This document shows positions 972 to 12,752 of a stretch of 24,000 nt of DNA, piece after piece (position 1 is the stretch's first letter; the number at the start of each line of letters is the position of its first letter). Below the pieces are notes generated by a model. The model was not told the DNA's origin and ran no database searches. It worked only from the letters and a program-made list of their open reading frames with translations. The DNA comes from Candidatus Moraniibacteriota bacterium (GTDB lineage: Bacteria > Patescibacteriota > Minisyncoccia > Moranbacterales > UBA1568). The DNA lies in assembly GCA_043743535.1 (NCBI GenBank), contig JAYTWI010000021.1:1-24000 (forward strand), in the 5' to 3' direction. The position numbers and the translations under genes were made by a program.

Positions 972-1589
972 CTACTCGGGGTTGTAGATTCGCTGACGTG
1001 GAATTTTCGCGATGACTGTGTCGCCCGCGTGGATGTTGCCGGAGGCATAAATGCTCCCGACGATTCCACGCTTGCCGATGGCCGCCTTAGGGAAGAGACC
1101 CACGAGTCCAGAGATGTCCGGAAATTTCTCTTGGATCGCTTCACCCGGTCCTTGGCACGGCATGTTTTCCGACCACACCACCAGCACGGCTGTTCGGAGC
1201 TGCCTCTCGTCTTTGCAAAAGAACAACATCGTTCCGGTGGGAAGCTCGGTAAGCTTCGGGATGCCATTCAAGACCAAATTCTCGCCGAGGCAGCCGTGCG
1301 GAATTGGATTCGGAAGACCCATCGCTTGCGCGACTTTCGCGAGTTCCTCAATGGAAACAGCGGAAAACTCCCGATGGTTGGCAATCTCGATACCCTTGAG
1401 AAATCCAAAAGAGAGAAGTTCTTTCTCGCGGACGTCCGCGAGCCGTACCCCAGCGTGATTGTCGCCCCTGACGCCATGTCCGCGAATCAGTTGAATCTTC
1501 GGGACTGACATCGAAAGGATTGAGCCAAAGCTAGCCGCCACAAGGACAGCTTCGACTCGTCCTCTTAGTTCGAAAGCTGACTTTATCAT
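972..1589 (-). CDS. MOSC domain-containing protein (YiiM-like)
   Basis: Translation contains GHGVRGDNHAG, GENLVLNG and the conserved-Cys stretch NMPCQGPG, typical of MOSC domains. Start moved from track 1646 to ATG 1589, which sits 5 nt downstream of a perfect AGGAGG (plus-strand cctcct, 1595-1600). Hand counts show it is clearly GC-richer than its neighbours. Confidence 0.8.
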   Translation of the reverse strand: MIKSAFELRGRVEAVLVAASFGSILSMSVPKIQLIRGHGVRGDNHAGVRLADVREKELLSFGFLKGIEIANHREFSAVSIEELAKVAQAMGLPNPIPHGCLGENLVLNGIPKLTELPTGTMLFFCKDERQLRTAVLVVWSENMPCQGPGEAIQEKFPDISGLVGLFPKAAIGKRGIVGSIYASGNIHAGDTVIAKIPRQRIYNPE

Positions 1590-1631
1590 TTGATCCTCCT
1601 CGGTCGTGAATTGTTGGAACGAACCGATAGT

Positions 1632-1660
1632 AGTATAACTTGACAATATTAGTAAGTCAA
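1632..1660 (-). promoter_or_regulatory. sigma70-like promoter for the MOSC gene
   Basis: On the minus strand: TTGACT (plus 1655-1660), a 17-nt spacer, then TATACT (plus 1632-1637). It lies about 40 nt upstream of ATG 1589. Confidence 0.5.
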
Positions 1661-2452: not shown

Positions 2453-3388
2453 ATGACGTGGGTTTTGGTGGCGCTTCTCGGATATTTTTTCAATGCCGTT
2501 TCAGCGCTTTTTGATAAATTTCTTTTGTCTGATCGAATAGGAGCACCAGTCGTCTATGCTTTTTTCGTCTCCCTTTTCAGTCTGTTTGCACTTTTTTTTA
2601 TTCCGTTTGGTTTTCATTTTGGCGACTTTCGAAACTCGGGTCTCTTGGTGTTTTCCGGGATGCTTTTTATTTATGGGCTGGTGGCATTTTACTACGCGGT
2701 CAAAAACCACGAGGTTTCCCGGGTGGCACCGCTTCTCGGAACAGTAGTATCGCTCGTGGGCTTTGGGGCGGCATTTCTTCCGGGAAATATTGATGGCAAC
2801 ACGCTCAGCGTTTGGTCATTTTTGGCACTGGTTTTTCTCATCATTGGTGGTCTACTCATCTCTTTTGATTTACCATTGCGCAAAGGTGAAACGATTTCCA
2901 AACTCGTCTTGATCGCTGGCCTTTTCATCGGAGTTTCTGCTGTTTTATTGAAATATGGTTACGGGCAAACCAATTTCGTGAGTGGTGTGGTATGGCAGCG
3001 TTTCGGGATGTTTTTGGGGGGCTGTAGTCTCCTCCTCACACCCTCTTTTCGTCAGCAGATTTTTGACCAGTTGGCACATTTTTCTCAAAAGCCAGCCCGC
3101 GCCAGGAGTACGGGCTTGTTCTTTGTGCTCAATAAGGTATGTGCTGGAGTGGCAGCTTTTCTCATTTCTTACGCCACTTTCCACGGCTCTGTTTCCTTTG
3201 TCCAGGCTTTAGCCGGTATGCAGTATGTTTTCATTCTCCTCTTGGCCTTTCCTCTCGTGCGGTTGTATCCGGATATCTATCAGGAGAAGCTCTCCTTGTT
3301 TGACTGGTTACAAAAAGCCGGGGCGGTGGTGCTCATTGGAATCGGGCTGTGGCTTATGACTACTCATGGTATTAAAATACTTTTATGA
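2453..3388 (+). CDS. polytopic membrane protein, EamA/DMT-like
   Basis: 311 aa that are almost entirely hydrophobic helices (about 10 TM segments), arranged as two similar halves like drug/metabolite transporter proteins. The stop overlaps the next start (ATGA at 3385-3388). Confidence 0.55.
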   Translation: MTWVLVALLGYFFNAVSALFDKFLLSDRIGAPVVYAFFVSLFSLFALFFIPFGFHFGDFRNSGLLVFSGMLFIYGLVAFYYAVKNHEVSRVAPLLGTVVSLVGFGAAFLPGNIDGNTLSVWSFLALVFLIIGGLLISFDLPLRKGETISKLVLIAGLFIGVSAVLLKYGYGQTNFVSGVVWQRFGMFLGGCSLLLTPSFRQQIFDQLAHFSQKPARARSTGLFFVLNKVCAGVAAFLISYATFHGSVSFVQALAGMQYVFILLLAFPLVRLYPDIYQEKLSLFDWLQKAGAVVLIGIGLWLMTTHGIKILL

Positions 3389-4419
3389 TGAAGATGTATA
3401 CTTTTTTGAAAAAATTTTTCAAGTGGCTAGGGTACTCCCTTTTGGGGGTTTTAGGTCTCGTACTTCTTCTTTTTGGGTATTTTAATCTGCCAGGGCCAAC
3501 GCCGCGAGAAGACGTGTCTTTGGGGATGACTTTTTCCTCCCGTTACGCTACGGGGCTTGGGCTTGATTGGAAGGAAACCTATCTCGCGTTACTCGATGAT
3601 GTCGGCGTTAAAAAAATGCGCCTGCCAGTCTATTGGGACCTCGTAGAAAAAGACAAGGGAACCTATGATTATGCTGATGTAGATTGGCAAGTGGCTGAGG
3701 CGCACAAGCGTGGGGTGGACGTCATTTTGACGGTCGGCCTGAAGGTGCCACGTTGGCCAGAATGCCATATTCCGAATTGGGCTAATGAGAATGAAACCGT
3801 GCGTCGTAAGGGTATACTTCATTTTATTATAGAGACGGTAAAGCGGTATCAAAATGATCCGACGGTCAGTACCTGGCAGGTGGAGAATGAGCCCTTTCTC
3901 CCCTTTGGTATTTGTCCGGCTTTCGATGTTTCTCTTCTCGAACAAGAAGTGGCACTGGTGAAAGCGATGGATCCTACTCGGCCAGTTTTGCTGACAGACA
4001 GCGGCGAGCTTTCGCTGTGGTTGGGGGCTGCCAGTCGGGGTGACAAATTTGGGACGACGCTTTATCGTGATATTTATAGCAAAAAAGTGGGCGGTTATTT
4101 CACCTATCCGATTGGGCCGAATTTTTTCCGCTTCAAGGCTTGGCTGGTGAGAACTTTTACTCATCAGAATAATTTGATAGTGATTGAACTTCAGGCTGAA
4201 CCGTGGGCTAGCGGTTGGGTGGTGGACGTGCCACTTCTGGAACAATTTAAGACCATGAATGAAAACAAATTGCGCGACAATGTCCGTTATGCCAAGCAAG
4301 TGGGCTTTTCAGAAGTGTATTTGTGGGGTGGAGAGTGGTGGTATTGGATGAAGACTAAAAAGGATTATCCGGCCGTCTGGGAGGCGGGCAAAGAATTATT
4401 TCACGAACATGCACAGTAA
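3385..4419 (+). CDS. membrane-anchored glycoside hydrolase, clan GH-A (GH5/GH42-like TIM barrel)
   Basis: N-terminal TM helix (WLGYSLLGVLGLVLLLFGYF), then MRLPVYWDLVE...GVDVILTVG...WQVENEPF, where NEP is the catalytic acid/base motif of clan GH-A enzymes. Translationally coupled to the upstream membrane protein. Confidence 0.6.
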   Translation: MMKMYTFLKKFFKWLGYSLLGVLGLVLLLFGYFNLPGPTPREDVSLGMTFSSRYATGLGLDWKETYLALLDDVGVKKMRLPVYWDLVEKDKGTYDYADVDWQVAEAHKRGVDVILTVGLKVPRWPECHIPNWANENETVRRKGILHFIIETVKRYQNDPTVSTWQVENEPFLPFGICPAFDVSLLEQEVALVKAMDPTRPVLLTDSGELSLWLGAASRGDKFGTTLYRDIYSKKVGGYFTYPIGPNFFRFKAWLVRTFTHQNNLIVIELQAEPWASGWVVDVPLLEQFKTMNENKLRDNVRYAKQVGFSEVYLWGGEWWYWMKTKKDYPAVWEAGKELFHEHAQ

Positions 4420-8421: not shown

Positions 8422-8823
8422 TGGTGGAGTTGATGGGAATTGCACCCATGTCCAGAGCAGTTTTTTCAAAATATTCTACAAGCGTAGTCAGCTTTGGGTA
8501 AATGCATGAGGTAGAAAGCAGACAAAATCCGCATACATTCTTTTCTTTGGCAATACGATCACAGAGGGTAAAGAAAAAGAAATACTCTGGTCACGTCTCG
8601 ATAATATGACACCGGAGATTCTTTATCGAGAATCAAGAGTCCGATGGCGACTCACAATTAAGCGAGTGCGAGAGCGAAAGAAGGAGCAAACGCTTGCGCG
8701 AATGCATTCTTTGCCTTGGTGATGAAGTTTGCATTTATCATCGTGAGAAGGATATTTACGACCATCTCCTCAAGGTCGGCTTGCCTATTTTGAAAGTACA
8801 GCCTGTCGAGTCTAAGCAACCCC
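8422..8823 (-). ncRNA. ssrA: tmRNA (transfer-messenger RNA)
   Basis: The minus strand starts GGGGUUGCUUAGACUCGACAGG (compare the conserved GGGGnUGAuUcuGGAUUCGACGGG). It ends GGACAUGGGUGCAAUUCCCAUCAACUCCACCA, which is a T-arm, then an acceptor 3' strand complementary to the 5' GGGGUUG with a G3-U70 pair, then an encoded CCA. It contains an internal tag frame and sits directly downstream of smpB. Length is 402 nt. Confidence 0.9.
8658..8732 (-). other. tmRNA tag-peptide reading frame (ANFITKAKNAFAQAFAPSFALALA, then stop)
   Basis: After ...GAUGAUAAAU the frame reads GCA AAC UUC AUC ACC AAG GCA AAG AAU GCA UUC GCG CAA GCG UUU GCU CCU UCU UUC GCU CUC GCA CUC GCU UAA. GCA AAC is also the E. coli resume sequence. 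The exact resume codon could be a later in-frame GCA. Confidence 0.6.
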
Positions 8824-8834
8824 ATTTTGGAAAA

Positions 8835-8862
8835 TTTTTCATTTCCAATTTTTCATTTCCAA
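8835..8862. repeat. perfect 14-bp tandem duplication (tttttcatttccaa x2)
   Basis: Units are 8835-8848 and 8849-8862, in the 72-bp spacer between the smpB stop and the ssrA 5' end. On the minus strand each unit carries TTGGAA, a possible -35 for ssrA. Confidence 0.85.
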
Positions 8863-8895
8863 TGTATTTGAAAAGGAAAAATTGTGAATGGAATA

Positions 8896-9339
8896 TTATC
8901 CTCGCATAGCACGCTCTATCCGACGCTTGGCTTCACGCTTGCCTATATCAGCCCGACGGTCATATTCTTTCTTGCCACGGCCTATCGCAAACTCTAGTTT
9001 GACAAGTTGCTTCTTAGTATACAACCGAATAGGGACGAGTGTCAAGCCTTCTGTGCGGTATTTTCCGATGAGAGAGCCGATTTCCCGTTTGCGTAACAGG
9101 AGCTTTCGTGGCCTACTATCTTCGTGCTTGGTGTCACGGTGGGCCTGGGCATAGCGAGGGATCAGAGCATTGGTCAAGTAGAGCTCACTTCCTTTGACCG
9201 TGACAAAGGCGCCTTTCAGGCTGGCATGGCCTGTTTTGACGCTTTTTACTTCAGCACCAGTCAATACCAAACCAGCCTCGAAGTGTCCTTCCAGAGCGTA
9301 ATCAAAAGTGGCTCGTTTGTTCCTGGCGATGGTTTTCAT
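8896..9339 (-). CDS. smpB: SsrA-binding protein SmpB
   Basis: MKTIARNKRATFDYALEGHFEAGLVLTGAEVKSVK...LLLRKREI...GRGKKEYDRR is canonical SmpB. Start moved from track 9408 to ATG 9339, the usual M..IA.NK.A..DY N-terminus. Confidence 0.93.
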   Translation of the reverse strand: MKTIARNKRATFDYALEGHFEAGLVLTGAEVKSVKTGHASLKGAFVTVKGSELYLTNALIPRYAQAHRDTKHEDSRPRKLLLRKREIGSLIGKYRTEGLTLVPIRLYTKKQLVKLEFAIGRGKKEYDRRADIGKREAKRRIERAMRG

Positions 9340-9401
9340 AGGCTTGTAGCACCCGTACTTTCCCACATTTGGCTCAAATAAGCAAGCAATTGCGAAAAGT
9401 A

Positions 9402-9430
9402 TTGACATAACAGGTTAGATATGCTATAAT
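9402..9430 (+). promoter_or_regulatory. consensus sigma70 promoter facing the GC-rich island
   Basis: TTGACA (9402-9407), a 17-nt spacer, then TATAAT (9425-9430), with a TGn extended -10 at 9422-9424. Both hexamers match the consensus exactly. The predicted transcription start is near 9437, about 225 nt upstream of ORF A. Confidence 0.6.
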
Positions 9431-9520
9431 TAAAAAATAATTTGAGGTGGTGAAATATCCCTTAAATTATGGAAATTGTTCTTTGATAAACGAGATTTAG
9501 CGAAAAAAATTCTCTTGTTC

Positions 9521-9627
9521 TCCTCTCTTCGTGAGTAGCACAGTGGATGTCTAAAAAGATTTCTAGTATGCTACTCATGTCGAGGAGCCCTTAATGCGGG
9601 GATCGCATTATTTCACGCTCACGGCCA
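9521..9627 (+). repeat. structured leader module, copy 1 (upstream of ORF A)
   Basis: About 92% identical to 10828-10934 (8 mismatches and 1 indel by hand), with 61 nt identical (9529-9589). P1 is CTCTTCG/CGAGGAG (9525-9531 / 9581-9587). P2 is TGAGTAGCA/TGCTACTCA (9532-9540 / 9569-9577), with a 28-nt loop and a TGT bulge. A second hairpin is AATGCG-GGGAT-CGCATT (9593-9609). Confidence 0.85.
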
Positions 9628-9661
9628 CAGGCCACGAGCAAGAAAAAACAGGAGAAAGAAA

Positions 9662-10660
9662 ATGGAAAGTCTTCAATATTCAGACGGAATCGGTTCCCGT
9701 GGACGGAACCCGTTTCTTCTCTTAGTGAAAGGAGATGAAGTTATCGTCTTCCGCGGACAGAGCATTCCCGGTGTGGTAGTGGTGCGAGGCACCGACTACA
9801 CCAAGAATGGTAAGTGGTCGCACACCACTTACCGGCTCCAGTTGGCGGACGGAATCCGCCACATCGTGGGACGGAATGGCTGGGAAACTAGTCGCTTCGT
9901 GGAAGGACTCGCTTTAGCGGTTGGTTGTGCTACGCCCGACACGTGGGCGGACACGGCCAAGGCGTTAGGGATTTCGGTTCCGAGCGCGATGGAGTTCTTG
10001 CGGAGCTGGAGGCAGCAGGAGGCCGAGAAGTTGGACGAGATCGAGCAGTCGTTGGCGAAACTCGAGGAAGTTTCCAAAAAGAAAACTGACTCGGTGATCG
10101 TCACGGTAAGCTTCGGCTCGCCGACCAATCACGCCGTGCGAGAAGGCTACTGGGAATCCCCCAAGTCTATCCCCGGCTACAACGCGGAGATTCGTAAGAT
10201 CGACGCGAGCGGAAGCTGGATCGAGGGGAACATCGTGGTTATCGGGATTTCCGGCACCGTTCTCTCTGTCAAGTACTCGTCCGGCATGCACGGCGGATAC
10301 TACGGAGTCTCCGTCGGGGTGATTCCGGGAACGGAAACCGAGATCCCGCCTTTCGAGACCGCCCGTGAAAAGGCGGCGACGGAAAGCGGACTGCCCAAGA
10401 ATCTCTTCCGAGCCTTCAACGGCGACGAGGAGCGAATTCGCGAGTTCATGGCAAAGGTCGCAAGACTGGATGCCGGAAAACTCGACGAGCACGAGTTCTC
10501 GTGCGGTCGGGCACGCAAGAGCGCGGAAGTGATTCGCGTCTCCGGCGACCTGGAATTCTTCCTCGGTGCTGATCCGTTGGAAGTTTGCGGGTATATCGAG
10601 GAGGTTCACTTCCCCTCGAACGCGCCCAAGACTTCCGACCCCCGAGGCCTCGTCGGCTAG
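9662..10660 (+). CDS. hypothetical protein, no recognisable family (ORF A, 332 aa)
   Basis: AGGAG at 9650-9654 lies 7 nt before ATG 9662. It is a long ORF in a GC-rich stretch with no signal peptide. A central coiled-coil-like segment reads WRQQEAEKLDEIEQSLAKLEEVSKKK. Confidence 0.6.
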   Translation: MESLQYSDGIGSRGRNPFLLLVKGDEVIVFRGQSIPGVVVVRGTDYTKNGKWSHTTYRLQLADGIRHIVGRNGWETSRFVEGLALAVGCATPDTWADTAKALGISVPSAMEFLRSWRQQEAEKLDEIEQSLAKLEEVSKKKTDSVIVTVSFGSPTNHAVREGYWESPKSIPGYNAEIRKIDASGSWIEGNIVVIGISGTVLSVKYSSGMHGGYYGVSVGVIPGTETEIPPFETAREKAATESGLPKNLFRAFNGDEERIREFMAKVARLDAGKLDEHEFSCGRARKSAEVIRVSGDLEFFLGADPLEVCGYIEEVHFPSNAPKTSDPRGLVG

Positions 10661-10751
10661 TGGTAACACCATGCTCGGCGACGCACTCCGCAAAGCCGAA
10701 CTCCGCTAGTCTCGTATTTCCAGCTTGAGGGTCTGGATTAACAAAACCCTC

Positions 10752-10802
10752 TCTGTTTCGGAATGTTTATTCCGACTGATGAGCTCAAAAGAGCGAAACA
10801 GA
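10752..10802 (+). ncRNA. type III hammerhead self-cleaving ribozyme motif
   Basis: 5'-UCUGU U^ UCGGAAU-GUUU-AUUCCGA CUGAUGA GCUC-AAAA-GAGC GAA ACAGA-3'. Helix III is 5 bp (10752-10756 / 10798-10802). Helix I is a 7-bp hairpin (10758-10764 / 10769-10775). Helix II is 4 bp (10783-10786 / 10791-10794). The cores CUGAUGA (10776-10782) and GAA (10795-10797), plus A15.1-U16.1 and G10.1-C11.1, are all present. The cleavage triplet is GUU, with the cut predicted after 10757. Confidence 0.8.
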
Positions 10803-10827
10803 TTGCACTTTGTAAAAAATAAGTTTT

Positions 10828-10934
10828 TCCTCTCCTCGTGAGTAGCACAGTGGATGTCTAAAAAGATTTCTAGTATGCTACTCATGTCGAGGAGCCTCGG
10901 TGCGGAGCACGCATAATTTCACGCTCACGGCCAA
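10828..10934 (+). repeat. structured leader module, copy 2 (upstream of ORF B)
   Basis: Same module as 9521-9627. P1 is CTCCTCG/CGAGGAG (10832-10838 / 10888-10894). P2 is 10839-10847 / 10876-10884. The one P1 difference from copy 1 (U to C) turns a G-U pair into G-C. The second hairpin keeps 5 pairs, including a G-U. Confidence 0.85.
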
Positions 10935-11055
10935 CCTACCCGCCACCCTCAAATTGCAGAGTGTTCGGATTCAAATGGGAACTTATGGAACGCTCGACAC
11001 AGTTCTTTCGATTCATCTATCGGCTCAGTTTCGAGCCAACAACTGGAGCAGCTCT

Positions 11056-11604
11056 ATGTCAAAGATTTCCGCTTCCTTTATTGCCGCTGTGGGTTTCTCA
11101 GCTATCTCTCTGGCGGCCTCCTCGGTCTGCGCGGCAAAAACAGAAAGCGCTCCGCTCTCGCCTGTCATCAGGGTGGAAGTCCAGGGGAAAGATATGATGT
11201 TGGCTCAAATGGGCAGGGACGGCGAGCCAATGATTCATGTCTTTGCTCGGTCTCCCAACCAAGCTGACGGCACCGAGCAGCTCTTTCGCAAGATCACTGC
11301 CGTGCTGCTGGGCAGTGGCTATCAGTGGAGGGGCAGCGACCAGTCGCTTGACAAAAACATTTGGTGCAAGGTCGAGACGACTTCCGTCCCGATGAAGGTA
11401 TCTTCGAAGGTATCTTCCCCGGCTGCCCTTGTGGCTGATGTCAGCTGCAACTTGAAAATCAGGGAAGGTAAATCGAACGACAAGACCCGCGTCATAAGGC
11501 TTGTCCAGTTTGGGTCTGGACCCAATCTCGACGACGGGGTGGCTCTGATTCCGGGGCTCATTGCCGAAGCCTACGCCGAAGCGCAACGGCTGACGGCGAA
11601 ATAG
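11056..11604 (+). CDS. hypothetical secreted or membrane-anchored protein (ORF B; alternative GTG start at 10900)
   Basis: GGAG at 11045-11048 lies 7 nt before ATG 11056. The N-terminus MSKISASFIAAVGFSAISLAASSVCA-AKT looks like a signal peptide. The frame is also open upstream to GTG 10900, inside the repeat module. Confidence 0.6.
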   Translation: MSKISASFIAAVGFSAISLAASSVCAAKTESAPLSPVIRVEVQGKDMMLAQMGRDGEPMIHVFARSPNQADGTEQLFRKITAVLLGSGYQWRGSDQSLDKNIWCKVETTSVPMKVSSKVSSPAALVADVSCNLKIREGKSNDKTRVIRLVQFGSGPNLDDGVALIPGLIAEAYAEAQRLTAK

Positions 11605-11636
11605 TAGGCGCAATCGCCAAATCGTCCAGCTAACCG

Positions 11637-11670
11637 CCGGGTACCACATGATGGTGCTCGGCTTTTTTCT
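11637..11670 (+). terminator. rho-independent terminator closing the island
   Basis: CCGGGUACCA (11637-11646), loop CAUGA, UGGUGCUCGG (11652-11661). This gives 10 pairs, including two G-U, followed by CUUUUUUCUUU. Confidence 0.8.
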
Positions 11671-11714
11671 TTGCATTTCTTTTTTTGTGCGCTAGGATTA
11701 GGGAGGATCAACCT

Positions 11715-12752
11715 ATGAGTGAATTAGCACATCAATTACGGAACCATTTGAATAAAGCCGAGGCTCTCGAACGTCTCAAACAAGAGCCTTTCCCACGGAG
11801 GGTTATTTCTTTCTACCGCTACGTCATCCTCGCCAACCCGCAGGCTTTGCGTGACGAGCTCTTTTCCGAGTGGGTGGAACTTGGAGTTTTGGGGCGGGTG
11901 TATCTGGCTACCGAAGGCATCAACGCCCAGATGAGTGTGCCTGAGTCGCAGTTTGAGAAATTTCAGGAACTTTTATATAAACGCAAAGAATGTACTGATG
12001 TGCCGTTTAAAGTCGGGGTGGAACAAAAAAAAGATGCTTTCTGGAAACTGACTATTAAAGTAAAGAAGCAGATTGTGGCTGATGGGCTCTCGCCTACGGA
12101 CTATGATGTCACCAATGTCGGGACACATTTGACCGCTCGACAGTGGAATGAACTGTCGGAGCAGTCAGGAACGGTGGTGGTCGACATGCGCAATAACTAT
12201 GAATCAGTCATCGGTCATTTTGAGGATGCACTCTGTTCCCCTGCCTATACTTTCAAAGAAGAACTGCCCATGGTGAAAGAAGCACTCAGGGGGCAAGAGG
12301 AGAAGAAAGTGCTCCTCTACTGCACTGGTGGCATTCGTTGTGAAAAAGCGAGCGCCTATCTGAAACACCATGGTTTTCAGAACGTCTATCAATTATACGG
12401 CGGTATCATCGACTACAAACACCAGATTGAGGCAGAGGGCTTGGAGTCAAAATTTAAGGGCAAAAATTTCGTCTTCGATGAGCGTCTAGGCGAGAGGATT
12501 ACCGAAGATGTACTGGCAAAATGCTATCAGTGTGACAGTGCTTGCGATGACTATACCAACTGTGCGAACCTTGAGTGTAACTTGCTCTTTATCCAGTGCA
12601 CGGACTGCAAAGAAAAATTTTCCGGATGTTGTAGTGTTAAGTGCCAGGCTGTTATAGTGTTGCCTGAAGCCGAACAGAGTAAGCGTCGGAAAGGGAAAGT
12701 GCTGTCCAAAAACTCCCAAGCTTTCAAGCAAAAAATCGCTGCCGCTCTATAA
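11715..12752 (+). CDS. trhO: rhodanese-domain tRNA uridine(34) hydroxylase TrhO (YceA/UPF0176 family)
   Basis: Colinear with E. coli YceA from memory: ISFYRY, GRVYLATEGINAQMSVP, VVDMRNNYESVIGHFE, LYCTGGIRCEKASAYLK, GKNFVFDERLGERI and the C-terminal Cys cluster. GGGAGG lies 8 nt before ATG 11715, which is preferred over track 11685. Confidence 0.88.
   Translation: MSELAHQLRNHLNKAEALERLKQEPFPRRVISFYRYVILANPQALRDELFSEWVELGVLGRVYLATEGINAQMSVPESQFEKFQELLYKRKECTDVPFKVGVEQKKDAFWKLTIKVKKQIVADGLSPTDYDVTNVGTHLTARQWNELSEQSGTVVVDMRNNYESVIGHFEDALCSPAYTFKEELPMVKEALRGQEEKKVLLYCTGGIRCEKASAYLKHHGFQNVYQLYGGIIDYKHQIEAEGLESKFKGKNFVFDERLGERITEDVLAKCYQCDSACDDYTNCANLECNLLFIQCTDCKEKFSGCCSVKCQAVIVLPEAEQSKRRKGKVLSKNSQAFKQKIAAAL

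Follow-up and report, generated by a model that had tools for sequence, protein, structure and literature searches.

Hammerhead ribozymes that flank genes are known from bacterial mobile DNA: Perreault et al. (2011) described clustered examples in prophages and other mobile elements and proposed that they cut long transcripts into single-gene or operon-length mRNAs, and the examples tested cleaved in vitro, with no circular or spliced products (PMC3088659). We analyzed a locus in a 24,000-nucleotide (nt) stretch of DNA from a Candidatus Moraniibacteriota bacterium (contig JAYTWI010000021.1, positions 1 to 24,000, forward strand; hereafter the window), where a type III hammerhead lies between two co-oriented open reading frames, ORF A and ORF B, and a structured RNA module occurs both ahead of ORF A and after the ribozyme. 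An earlier sequence-only reading saw here a self-contained two-gene ORFan island in which each gene is preceded by the same module, and took it to resemble no described system. The last point does not hold, as hammerheads flanking genes in bacterial mobile elements had already been described (PMC3088659); these are the closest known arrangement, and by analogy with them the ribozyme would act in transcript processing. We consider it fairly probable that positions 9402-10933 are a horizontally acquired expression cassette, whose ribozyme most likely cuts the transcript into separate messages. A full-text literature search on hammerhead or self-cleaving ribozymes together with Patescibacteria or the candidate phyla radiation (CPR) returned no description of this element.

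The window resembles the systems of Perreault et al. in that horizontally acquired DNA carries a sense-strand hammerhead between genes that share an orientation but vary in identity. It differs in its host, which belongs to the Patescibacteria, in placing the ribozyme in a fixed composite (pseudoknot-like hairpin, type III hammerhead, three-helix leader running to the Shine-Dalgarno sequence), and in its tie to one particular uncharacterized protein family. Only one ribozyme is present in the window rather than several, with two or three in the related loci L003, L020 and L034, and the phage or integrase context is absent, serine recombinases being found only near distant ORF A relatives.

Three other kinds of system offer partial parallels. 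In RiboJ-type synthetic insulators, a hammerhead-derived ribozyme and a hairpin precede the ribosome-binding site, and cleavage leaves each downstream gene with a uniform, defined 5' end irrespective of the sequence before it. The window element has the same order of ribozyme, structured hairpin and Shine-Dalgarno sequence, but it is natural and far larger (about 110-145 nt, three helices), and its invariant single-stranded motifs suggest a further regulatory partner. The intercistronic RNase III sites of phage T7 are structured RNA between genes that leaves protective hairpins on the products, which is likewise the expected outcome for the structured elements of a polycistronic transcript here, whereas the predicted cut in the window would be made by self-cleaving RNA and not by a host enzyme. 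Retrozymes and viroid-like circular RNAs also combine a type III hammerhead with direct repeats around a unit of ~1.3 kb, and relatives of the cassette have ribozymes on both sides. In the window, however, only one repeat adjoins a ribozyme, copy 1 being preceded by a promoter instead, and the unit is protein-coding, with copies that carry a bacterial promoter and none found to be circular or RNA-derived.

Limits and insertion of the cassette

The cassette (Table 1) aligns with positions 2738-4294 of locus L014 at 79.6% identity over 1567 nt, and L005, L012, L022 and L045 are similar. The left edge of homology is the -35 box in every compared cassette, so that the match to L014, L005, L022 and L045 begins at the promoter, and the right edge is 10933. 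Because homology with cassettes in unrelated genomes spans exactly these positions, they are taken as the cassette limits. The same promoter, leader, ORF A and hammerhead and half a module are present in L005, a Saccharibacteria genome, and on the evidence of such alignments the cassette family circulates among Patescibacteria at 76-85% nucleotide identity. The perfect TTGACA-17-TATAAT promoter reported earlier stands, as does the strong terminator, then placed at 11637-11670.

Table 1. Coordinates of the cassette, the resident gene and neighboring features in the window
Feature	Position	Strand	Details
tmRNA (ssrA)	8422-8823	minus	Rfam tmRNA model, 115 bits over full length
smpB	8896-9408	minus	mechanical ORF, 170 aa (amino acids) vs 147 aa in relatives
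Cassette	9402-10933		order: promoter, 5' hairpin, three-helix module, ORF A, pseudoknot-like hairpin, type III hammerhead, cut-off second module
Cassette promoter	9402-9430	+	TTGACA-17-TGcTATAAT; 12/12 consensus match, TG-extended -10
5'-terminal leader hairpin	9439-9468	+	AAUUUGAGG / CCUUAAAUU; few nt past predicted transcription start
Module copy 1	9519-9661	+	complete structured leader; model R1, 151 bits
Module P1 (long hairpin)	9530-9579	+	
Module P2	9593-9609	+	
Module P3	9617-9639	+	
Shine-Dalgarno of ORF A	9650-9654	+	AGGAG, after P3
ORF A	9662-10660	+	332 aa
C-terminal tail remnant	10662-10709	+	GNTMLGDALRKAELR*; +1 frame relative to ORF A, after stop
Pseudoknot-like element	10720-10751	+	immediately 5' of hammerhead
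Helix A	10720-23/10733-36	+	CCAG with CUGG
Helix B	10727-31/10747-51	+	GAGGG with CCCUC
Type III hammerhead	10750-10806	+	Rfam RF00008 and model from relatives
Hammerhead stem III	10750-56/10799-10805	+	
Hammerhead stem I	10758-64/10769-75	+	
Hammerhead stem II	10783-86/10791-94	+	
Module copy 2, truncated	10826-10933	+	P1, P2, 5' half of P3
Junction filler	10934-10991	+	between cassette and resident DNA
Resident 5' untranslated region of ORF B	10992-11055	+	aligns with L093 4746-4805; hairpin 11022-11037
ORF B	11056-11604	+	182 aa, ATG 11056, signal-peptide-like N-terminus
Intrinsic terminator	11636-11670	+	11-pair stem (11636-11662), then T-run TTTTTTCTTT

In order to place the insertion, related genomes are informative. 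In four contigs from Moranbacteria relatives (L089-L092), smpB and a trhO-like gene are divergent and adjacent, ~360 nt apart, with neither ORF A nor ORF B between them. In the closest relative, L093 (smpB DNA 90% identical), an ORF B homolog with its own promoter and 5' untranslated region lies directly beside smpB, and this region contains no ORF A, ribozyme or module. From the L093 arrangement and the resumption of resident homology at 10992 (TCGACACAGTT...) it follows that ORF B is resident and that the import is the smaller unit; at the level of sequence, these comparisons show that the cassette was inserted between smpB and resident ORF B, upstream of ORF B. L093 is unlikely to be a deletion derivative of the window arrangement, as its promoter spacer matches that of the cassette promoter at only 5/13 bases. 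Integration at the 3' end of ssrA was rejected as well, since the cassette sits beyond smpB and not at the tmRNA 3' end.

Base composition is consistent with an import. ORF A has 58.3% GC (71% at third codon positions, GC3), and the 1-kb stretch from 9701 is the GC maximum of the window (0.589, against a mean of 0.478 and a standard deviation of 0.034). The GC-rich import proposed beforehand is thus supported by the GC outlier and by the empty smpB-trhO gap in L089-L092; the expected deviation in codon usage was weak, synonymous usage being only marginally atypical. Protein-family scans found no integrase or transposase in the island, in agreement with the first description, and no integrase or phage gene in the window. 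Elements of the IS110 bridge-RNA or TnpB omega-RNA type were rejected because transposase domains are absent.

At the right edge, module copy 2 lacks the 3' half of P3, the second CACG pair and the Shine-Dalgarno sequence, and scores 98 bits vs 151 for copy 1. The junction filler that follows has no match in any locus compared. By its structure copy 2 is what remains of the start of a downstream cistron now lost, and did not evolve as a leader for ORF B; the earlier description of two copies was right about the repeat and its fold but not about completeness, as copy 2 ends at 10933 inside P3. ORF B, whose predicted start and signal-peptide-like N-terminus are agreed from the sequence, keeps its own 5' untranslated region, shared with L093. 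Since this region is kept and copy 2 is cut off, ORF B is not functionally preceded by the same module, contrary to what had been claimed. ORF B has no match in Pfam, PHROG, NCBIfam or PADLOC, and its sole homolog cluster (P0122, 51% identity) is located in L093; by this distribution it is a lineage-specific resident gene outside the cassette. The L093-type promoter has been lost and the window offers no promoter-like site before ORF B besides that of the cassette, so ORF B is probably expressed from the 3' product that the ribozyme releases. The two-gene ORFan island therefore reduces to an import of 9402-10933, with a resident ORF B and an ORF A that belongs to a large family.

Ribozyme, leader module and proposed transcript processing

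Like their insertion, the anatomy, conservation and strand specificity of the cassette's RNA elements can be read directly from the alignments. The Rfam model RF00008 (Hammerhead_3) matches 10750-10804 with 39.8 bits (E = 1.5e-6 in a 2.5-kb search), and a model built from relatives gives 72.6 bits. The core is present (CUGAUGA at 10776-10782, GAAA at 10796-10799, the A15.1-U16.1 pair, and U10757, not G, at position 17), and both the Rfam alignment and the minimum-free-energy fold have stems I and II loop-capped and stem III open. The complete type III hammerhead first read at 10752-10802 is thus real. Among 19 distinct relative sequences, the core does not vary, 97.4% of cells are paired and compensatory changes occur at 13/16 pairs, with a covariation score of 0.82 compared with at most 0.12 for slid partners. 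The hammerhead model matched 25 sites, distributed over 20 loci and without exception on the same strand as ORF A. Cleavage is predicted after U17, between 10757 and 10758. Read by eye, helices A and B of the pseudoknot-like element stay paired via different sequences in L003, L005, L020, L039 and L045, and the 5' hairpin, whose placement relative to the -10 box is inferred, shows pairing-preserving changes in L005, L013, L014, L022 and L030.

The module is a three-helix leader. Its P3 contains an invariant CAC/ACG internal loop, has invariant CACG motifs on either side and stops 10 nt short of the Shine-Dalgarno sequence; in P1 and P3, both the sequence and the length of the apical parts differ among copies. 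As a direct repeat, 9518-9589 and 10825-10896 are 97% identical and 9595-9627 and 10901-10933 are 88% identical, with a spacing of 1307; because the copies differ, the repeat is not an assembly artifact. The predicted folds of the two copies are much more stable than those of shuffled sequence (z = -5.3 and -3.9). In an alignment of 27 copies, pairing is maintained in 93.4% of cells and compensatory change is seen at 20/31 pairs, for a covariation score of 0.349 (at most 0.08 in slid controls). Many of the pairs are G-U, and the structure can therefore form only on the sense strand, as RNA. No Rfam 15 family corresponds to the module: a permissive scan of 9300-11800 gave only Hammerhead_3 and two chance-level matches (E>=1). 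The repeated structured RNA module postulated at the outset is thus real, recurs adjacent to ORF A homologs, and shows strong compensatory covariation in the covariance-model check that had been proposed. The extreme conservation of the CACG/P3 region suggests that an additional factor reads it. A pattern scan of IMG/VR for CACG/P3 returned 68 loci, all coding-sequence coincidences and none matching the model, so the module was rejected as a phage feature.

Ribozyme and module form one intercistronic unit, with the hammerhead ending 20-30 nt before the module in 13 loci. Past the second module comes a conserved ORF C in L012, L014, L022, L036 and L045, and in L011 a small ORF of membrane-like character; L034 has three hammerheads between ORF A and a pair of MoxR-type ATPases. 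The composite bears on the idea that P1 is processed by RNase III, as happens at the intercistronic sites of phage T7, with this host enzyme as the main processor. A hairpin of ~20 bp with small symmetric internal loops does have, from general knowledge, the shape of a typical substrate, but the conservation of P1 extends to its sequence, beyond shape alone, and a fully conserved hammerhead 20-30 nt upstream in 13 loci would be redundant. We regard this as highly improbable.

The differing genes that follow the module (ORF C, the L011 ORF and, here, resident DNA) would also fit a DNA-level recombination site like attC, at which arrays swap cargo while the hammerhead is incidental. Cassette homology breaks inside the module both in the window (10933) and in L005 (~4940), and large serine recombinases occur near distant ORF A relatives. 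However, the two breakpoints lie at different positions, as decay predicts rather than site-specific exchange; the many G-U pairs would become A-C mismatches on the opposite strand; and the module keeps its sequence to a high degree, unlike attC sites, in which structure and not sequence is conserved. It is also always sense-oriented, between ribozyme and Shine-Dalgarno sequence, and the window has no integrase. A comparison with integron cassettes gave the same picture of a sequence-conserved module with strand-specific G-U pairing and no integrase, attC core motifs not having been scanned for. Such a recombination site is distinctly unlikely.

In some relatives, ORF A or a gene block is bracketed by hammerheads (L020 at 140 and 1559; L034 at 2815, 3760 and 6426; L003 at 3644 and 5072), which raises the prospect of a retrozyme- or viroid-like RNA, cut at the flanking hammerheads and ligated, by RtcB or the ribozyme, into a circular protein-coding RNA that is functional or mobile. 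Many ORF A homologs lie on contigs of 1.1-1.5 kb, and the 1307-nt repeat spacing resembles a unit length. Against this, the window has only one hammerhead, and homology between copies takes in the promoter, from which we conclude that they spread as DNA. The stem III strands of the two L003 ribozymes would not pair across the junction, and the short contigs begin inside P1 and end at differing ribozyme positions, which marks assembly breaks and not circles. Furthermore, Perreault et al. sought circular products of clustered bacterial hammerheads and found none (PMC3088659). Circular RNA of this kind is very improbable. Host genes flank the unit and the promoter is part of the copies, on which grounds an RNA replicon of the Obelisk or viroid type, or a circular contig, was rejected; contigs L088, L098 and L099 (~1.2 kb) were rejected as circles, as they start in the P1 hairpin and end variably within the ribozyme.

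In the favored reading, in which the ribozyme divides the message of an acquired cassette, a single transcript would start near 9437 and end at the terminator. Cleavage by the hammerhead would leave an upstream ORF A mRNA ending in the hairpin/pseudoknot with a 2',3'-cyclic phosphate, and a downstream RNA beginning with a 5'-OH, followed by ribozyme stems I and II and then the long P1 hairpin. Each cistron would become an independent monocistronic message with protected structured ends and a common leader, and translation may be set or regulated by the invariant CACG/P3 region that immediately precedes the Shine-Dalgarno sequence. The copy in the window is partly decayed: its second leader is broken off inside P3, the gene that originally followed has been lost, and the tail of ORF A is out of frame.

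Several points weigh against this reading. Self-cleavage, the transcript boundaries and any effects on stability or translation are predicted from sequence. The 39.8 bits of the hammerhead fall below the Rfam gathering score of 48.5, which is a curated cut-off and not a structural requirement, and short loops lower the score of a hammerhead. The cleavage triplet is GUU and not the more usual GUC; GUU can be cleaved, usually more slowly than GUC. The module covariation counts rest on an alignment fitted to the model, which favors structure, and the conservation of the module far exceeds the needs of a simple stabilizing hairpin, so it may have another role. Finally, no mobility gene that would account for its movement is present in or near the cassette.

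The ORF A family and its neighbors

ORF A has no match in Pfam, PHROG, NCBIfam or PADLOC, and no meaningful Pfam domain was found in any of 120 family members scanned, in keeping with the earlier statement that it lacks a recognizable domain. It is not an ORFan as had been stated. A word-indexed search found 175 homologous clusters (at 90% identity), many of them 70-85% identical to ORF A, and an exhaustive profile search found 625 representative clusters (at 50%) at E<=1e-3, of which 436 remained at E<=1e-10. The family is mostly patescibacterial, the named sources being metagenome-assembled genomes of Kaiser-, Sacchari- and Uhrbacteria, and metagenomic contigs with a stated source came mostly from groundwater (Hainich) or sediment. 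ORF A was absent from phage and plasmid collections; four IMG/VR contigs hold relatives of ~50% identity, without ribozyme or module.

Ratios of nonsynonymous to synonymous substitution rates (dN/dS) of 0.14-0.26 against eleven relatives (at least 70% protein identity) and 0.28-0.35 against two more distant ones indicate that ORF A is a real gene under purifying selection. An antisense overlapping gene was rejected, as the long antisense ORFs share ORF A codon boundaries; ORF A and its relatives carry just 0-4 TTA/CTA/TCA codons, which bears out the view that these are shadow ORFs. The AlphaFold (AF2) model of ORF A (predicted local distance difference test, pLDDT, 93.8) has two beta-rich domains and a helical C-terminal domain. 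The sensitive searches that had been proposed for ORF A, Foldseek against PDB and BFVD and a profile search of PDB sequences, returned no known family or fold, and curated families and folds (Pfam, NCBIfam, PHROGs, PADLOC, PDB sequence, PDB/BFVD fold) accommodated neither ORF A nor ORF B.

The conserved core of the family is its first ~225 residues, and many members consist only of the core or of the first ~135 residues. The family ends in a conserved tail (...GNTxLGDALRKAGLR), relatives ending in ...GGNTMLGDALRKAGLR. Past the ORF A stop of the window, the tail is encoded in the +1 frame; it was therefore lost from the protein through a linker frameshift. The same remnant sequence is present in an independent assembly (Logan contig L088), the L005 reading being used for comparison. 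Variant architectures include a 794-aa protein in L081 (1411-3795) whose C-terminal part is the second half of ORF A and, in P0091, a duplicated N-terminal domain.

Linkage to the RNA elements depends on distance. Relatives of at least 70% identity have the module upstream in 13/18 cases and the hammerhead downstream in 10/15, compared with 1/22 and 1/16 for relatives below 55% identity. This tight linkage to close relatives could mean that the module is the RNA partner of ORF A, either as an operator for autoregulation or, in a ribonucleoprotein, as a guide- or scaffold-like RNA, with the hammerhead mainly releasing or defining it. The CACG motifs, single-stranded and invariant, together with the 2x2 A/C internal loop of P3, resemble a recognition surface, the apical parts of P1 and P3 vary as noted above, and ORF A has no known fold in PDB or BFVD. 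On the other hand, the same module precedes other genes too (ORF C, the L011 ORF), the variable loops are on inspection not complementary to the cassette flanks, and nothing points to nucleic-acid binding by ORF A. We hold this partnership to be unlikely, though not negligibly so.

Functional hints on ORF A come from other loci, not from the window itself. ORF C, which is not in the window, lies up- or downstream of ORF A in 11 loci (for example L012 1482-2402 and L014 4326-5246; also L022, L036, L045 and L001 941-2815). It has no Pfam match, but its AlphaFold model (pLDDT 93.1) matches DHH/DHHA1 phosphoesterases, the best fold match being the GdpP catalytic domain (E = 9.8e-5, probability 1.0), followed by PAP phosphatase, RecJ2 and NrnA. 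A P-loop domain, homologous to the AAA portion of Csx3-AAA proteins, is often encoded next to ORF C or, as in L001, fused to it. In L100-L107 (e.g. L100 1322-3623) and L001 (700-1095 and 6093-6443), ORF A is directly preceded by small Csx3-like ORFs, which match PF09620 weakly, and by a 189-aa ORF; in L100-L102 and L105 a hammerhead separates ORF A from the Csx3-like gene. By sequence and modeled structure, these neighbors give a weak hint of a role in oligonucleotide or RNA-end metabolism, or in (counter-)defense.

One reading built on them is that hammerhead, module and ORF A form a novel type of ribonucleoprotein cassette in which the RNA ends (5'-OH, 2',3'-cyclic phosphate) and the CACG/P3 surface are functionally read, the promoter-bearing unit moving between CPR classes recombinase-free. 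ORF A or its recurrent partners (Csx3-like, P-loop kinase-like domain, DHH-like phosphoesterase) could be the reader, which might serve in sensing or repairing RNA ends, for circular or re-ligated mRNAs, or in anti-defense signaling, and so go beyond plain trimming of mRNA. We judge this to be rather unlikely.

A distant ORF A subfamily (52-61% identity; L008, L028, L048 and L049) sits in a ~6-kb block with a MerR-like protein, a ~165-300-aa protein and one or two large serine recombinases, which looks like an integrative element. In L036 a serine recombinase lies beside a much closer ORF A fragment (82% identity). tRNA genes are found within a few hundred nt of cassette ends in L003, L005, L016, L022, L023 and L040, including a tRNA-Thr 130 nt past the L005 cassette and a tRNA-Ser ~100 nt past the second L003 hammerhead; the cassette of the window instead neighbors smpB/ssrA.

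Flanking genes and significance

The tmRNA, smpB and trhO-like genes first named as flanks were all recovered. SmpB of the window falls in a cluster at >=90% identity shared with Candidatus Moranbacteria proteins, which places the host among Moranbacteria-like CPR bacteria; its true start is probably the ATG at 9339 (MKTIARNK...), ~62 nt short of the cassette edge. ARAGORN did not report the tmRNA despite the full-length Rfam match. The gap between ssrA and smpB contains a 14-nt tandem, AATTTTTCATTTCC, in 2 copies at 8833-8860, within a 34-nt inverted repeat (8829-8901). The other flanking genes are the trhO-like rhodanese gene and argS, and the remaining window consists of ordinary housekeeping genes.

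A gene for a MOSC-domain protein (972-1646, minus strand) is the second GC-rich gene of the window (53.8% GC, GC3 61%). It has its own strong promoter-like site and terminator, adjoins an AT-rich repeat, and may be another import. This palindromic repeat ("Repeat X", 738-899) is ~76-83% identical to sequences flanking ORF A cassettes elsewhere (L014 800-1328 and 5351-5477, L011, L012, L036, L005), and may be a repeat common to CPR genomes, either a landing pad or similar to a miniature inverted-repeat transposable element. As part of the insertion it was rejected, its sole copy in the window being 8.5 kb away.

What is new here is a composite RNA-processing unit, real and widespread, with an undescribed leader motif and an undescribed protein family. 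The role of the hundreds of hammerheads in bacterial mobile DNA has been unclear since 2011, and a composite that recurs between different genes offers a concrete, testable model of ribozyme-driven operon mRNA maturation, as well as a natural counterpart of synthetic "insulator" parts. For the Patescibacteria it adds two undescribed items, an RNA motif with strong covariation and a protein family of >600 clusters whose confident fold matches nothing searched. In this group, a small promoter-bearing cassette appears to move between CPR classes and, in the window, to have captured the expression of a resident gene.

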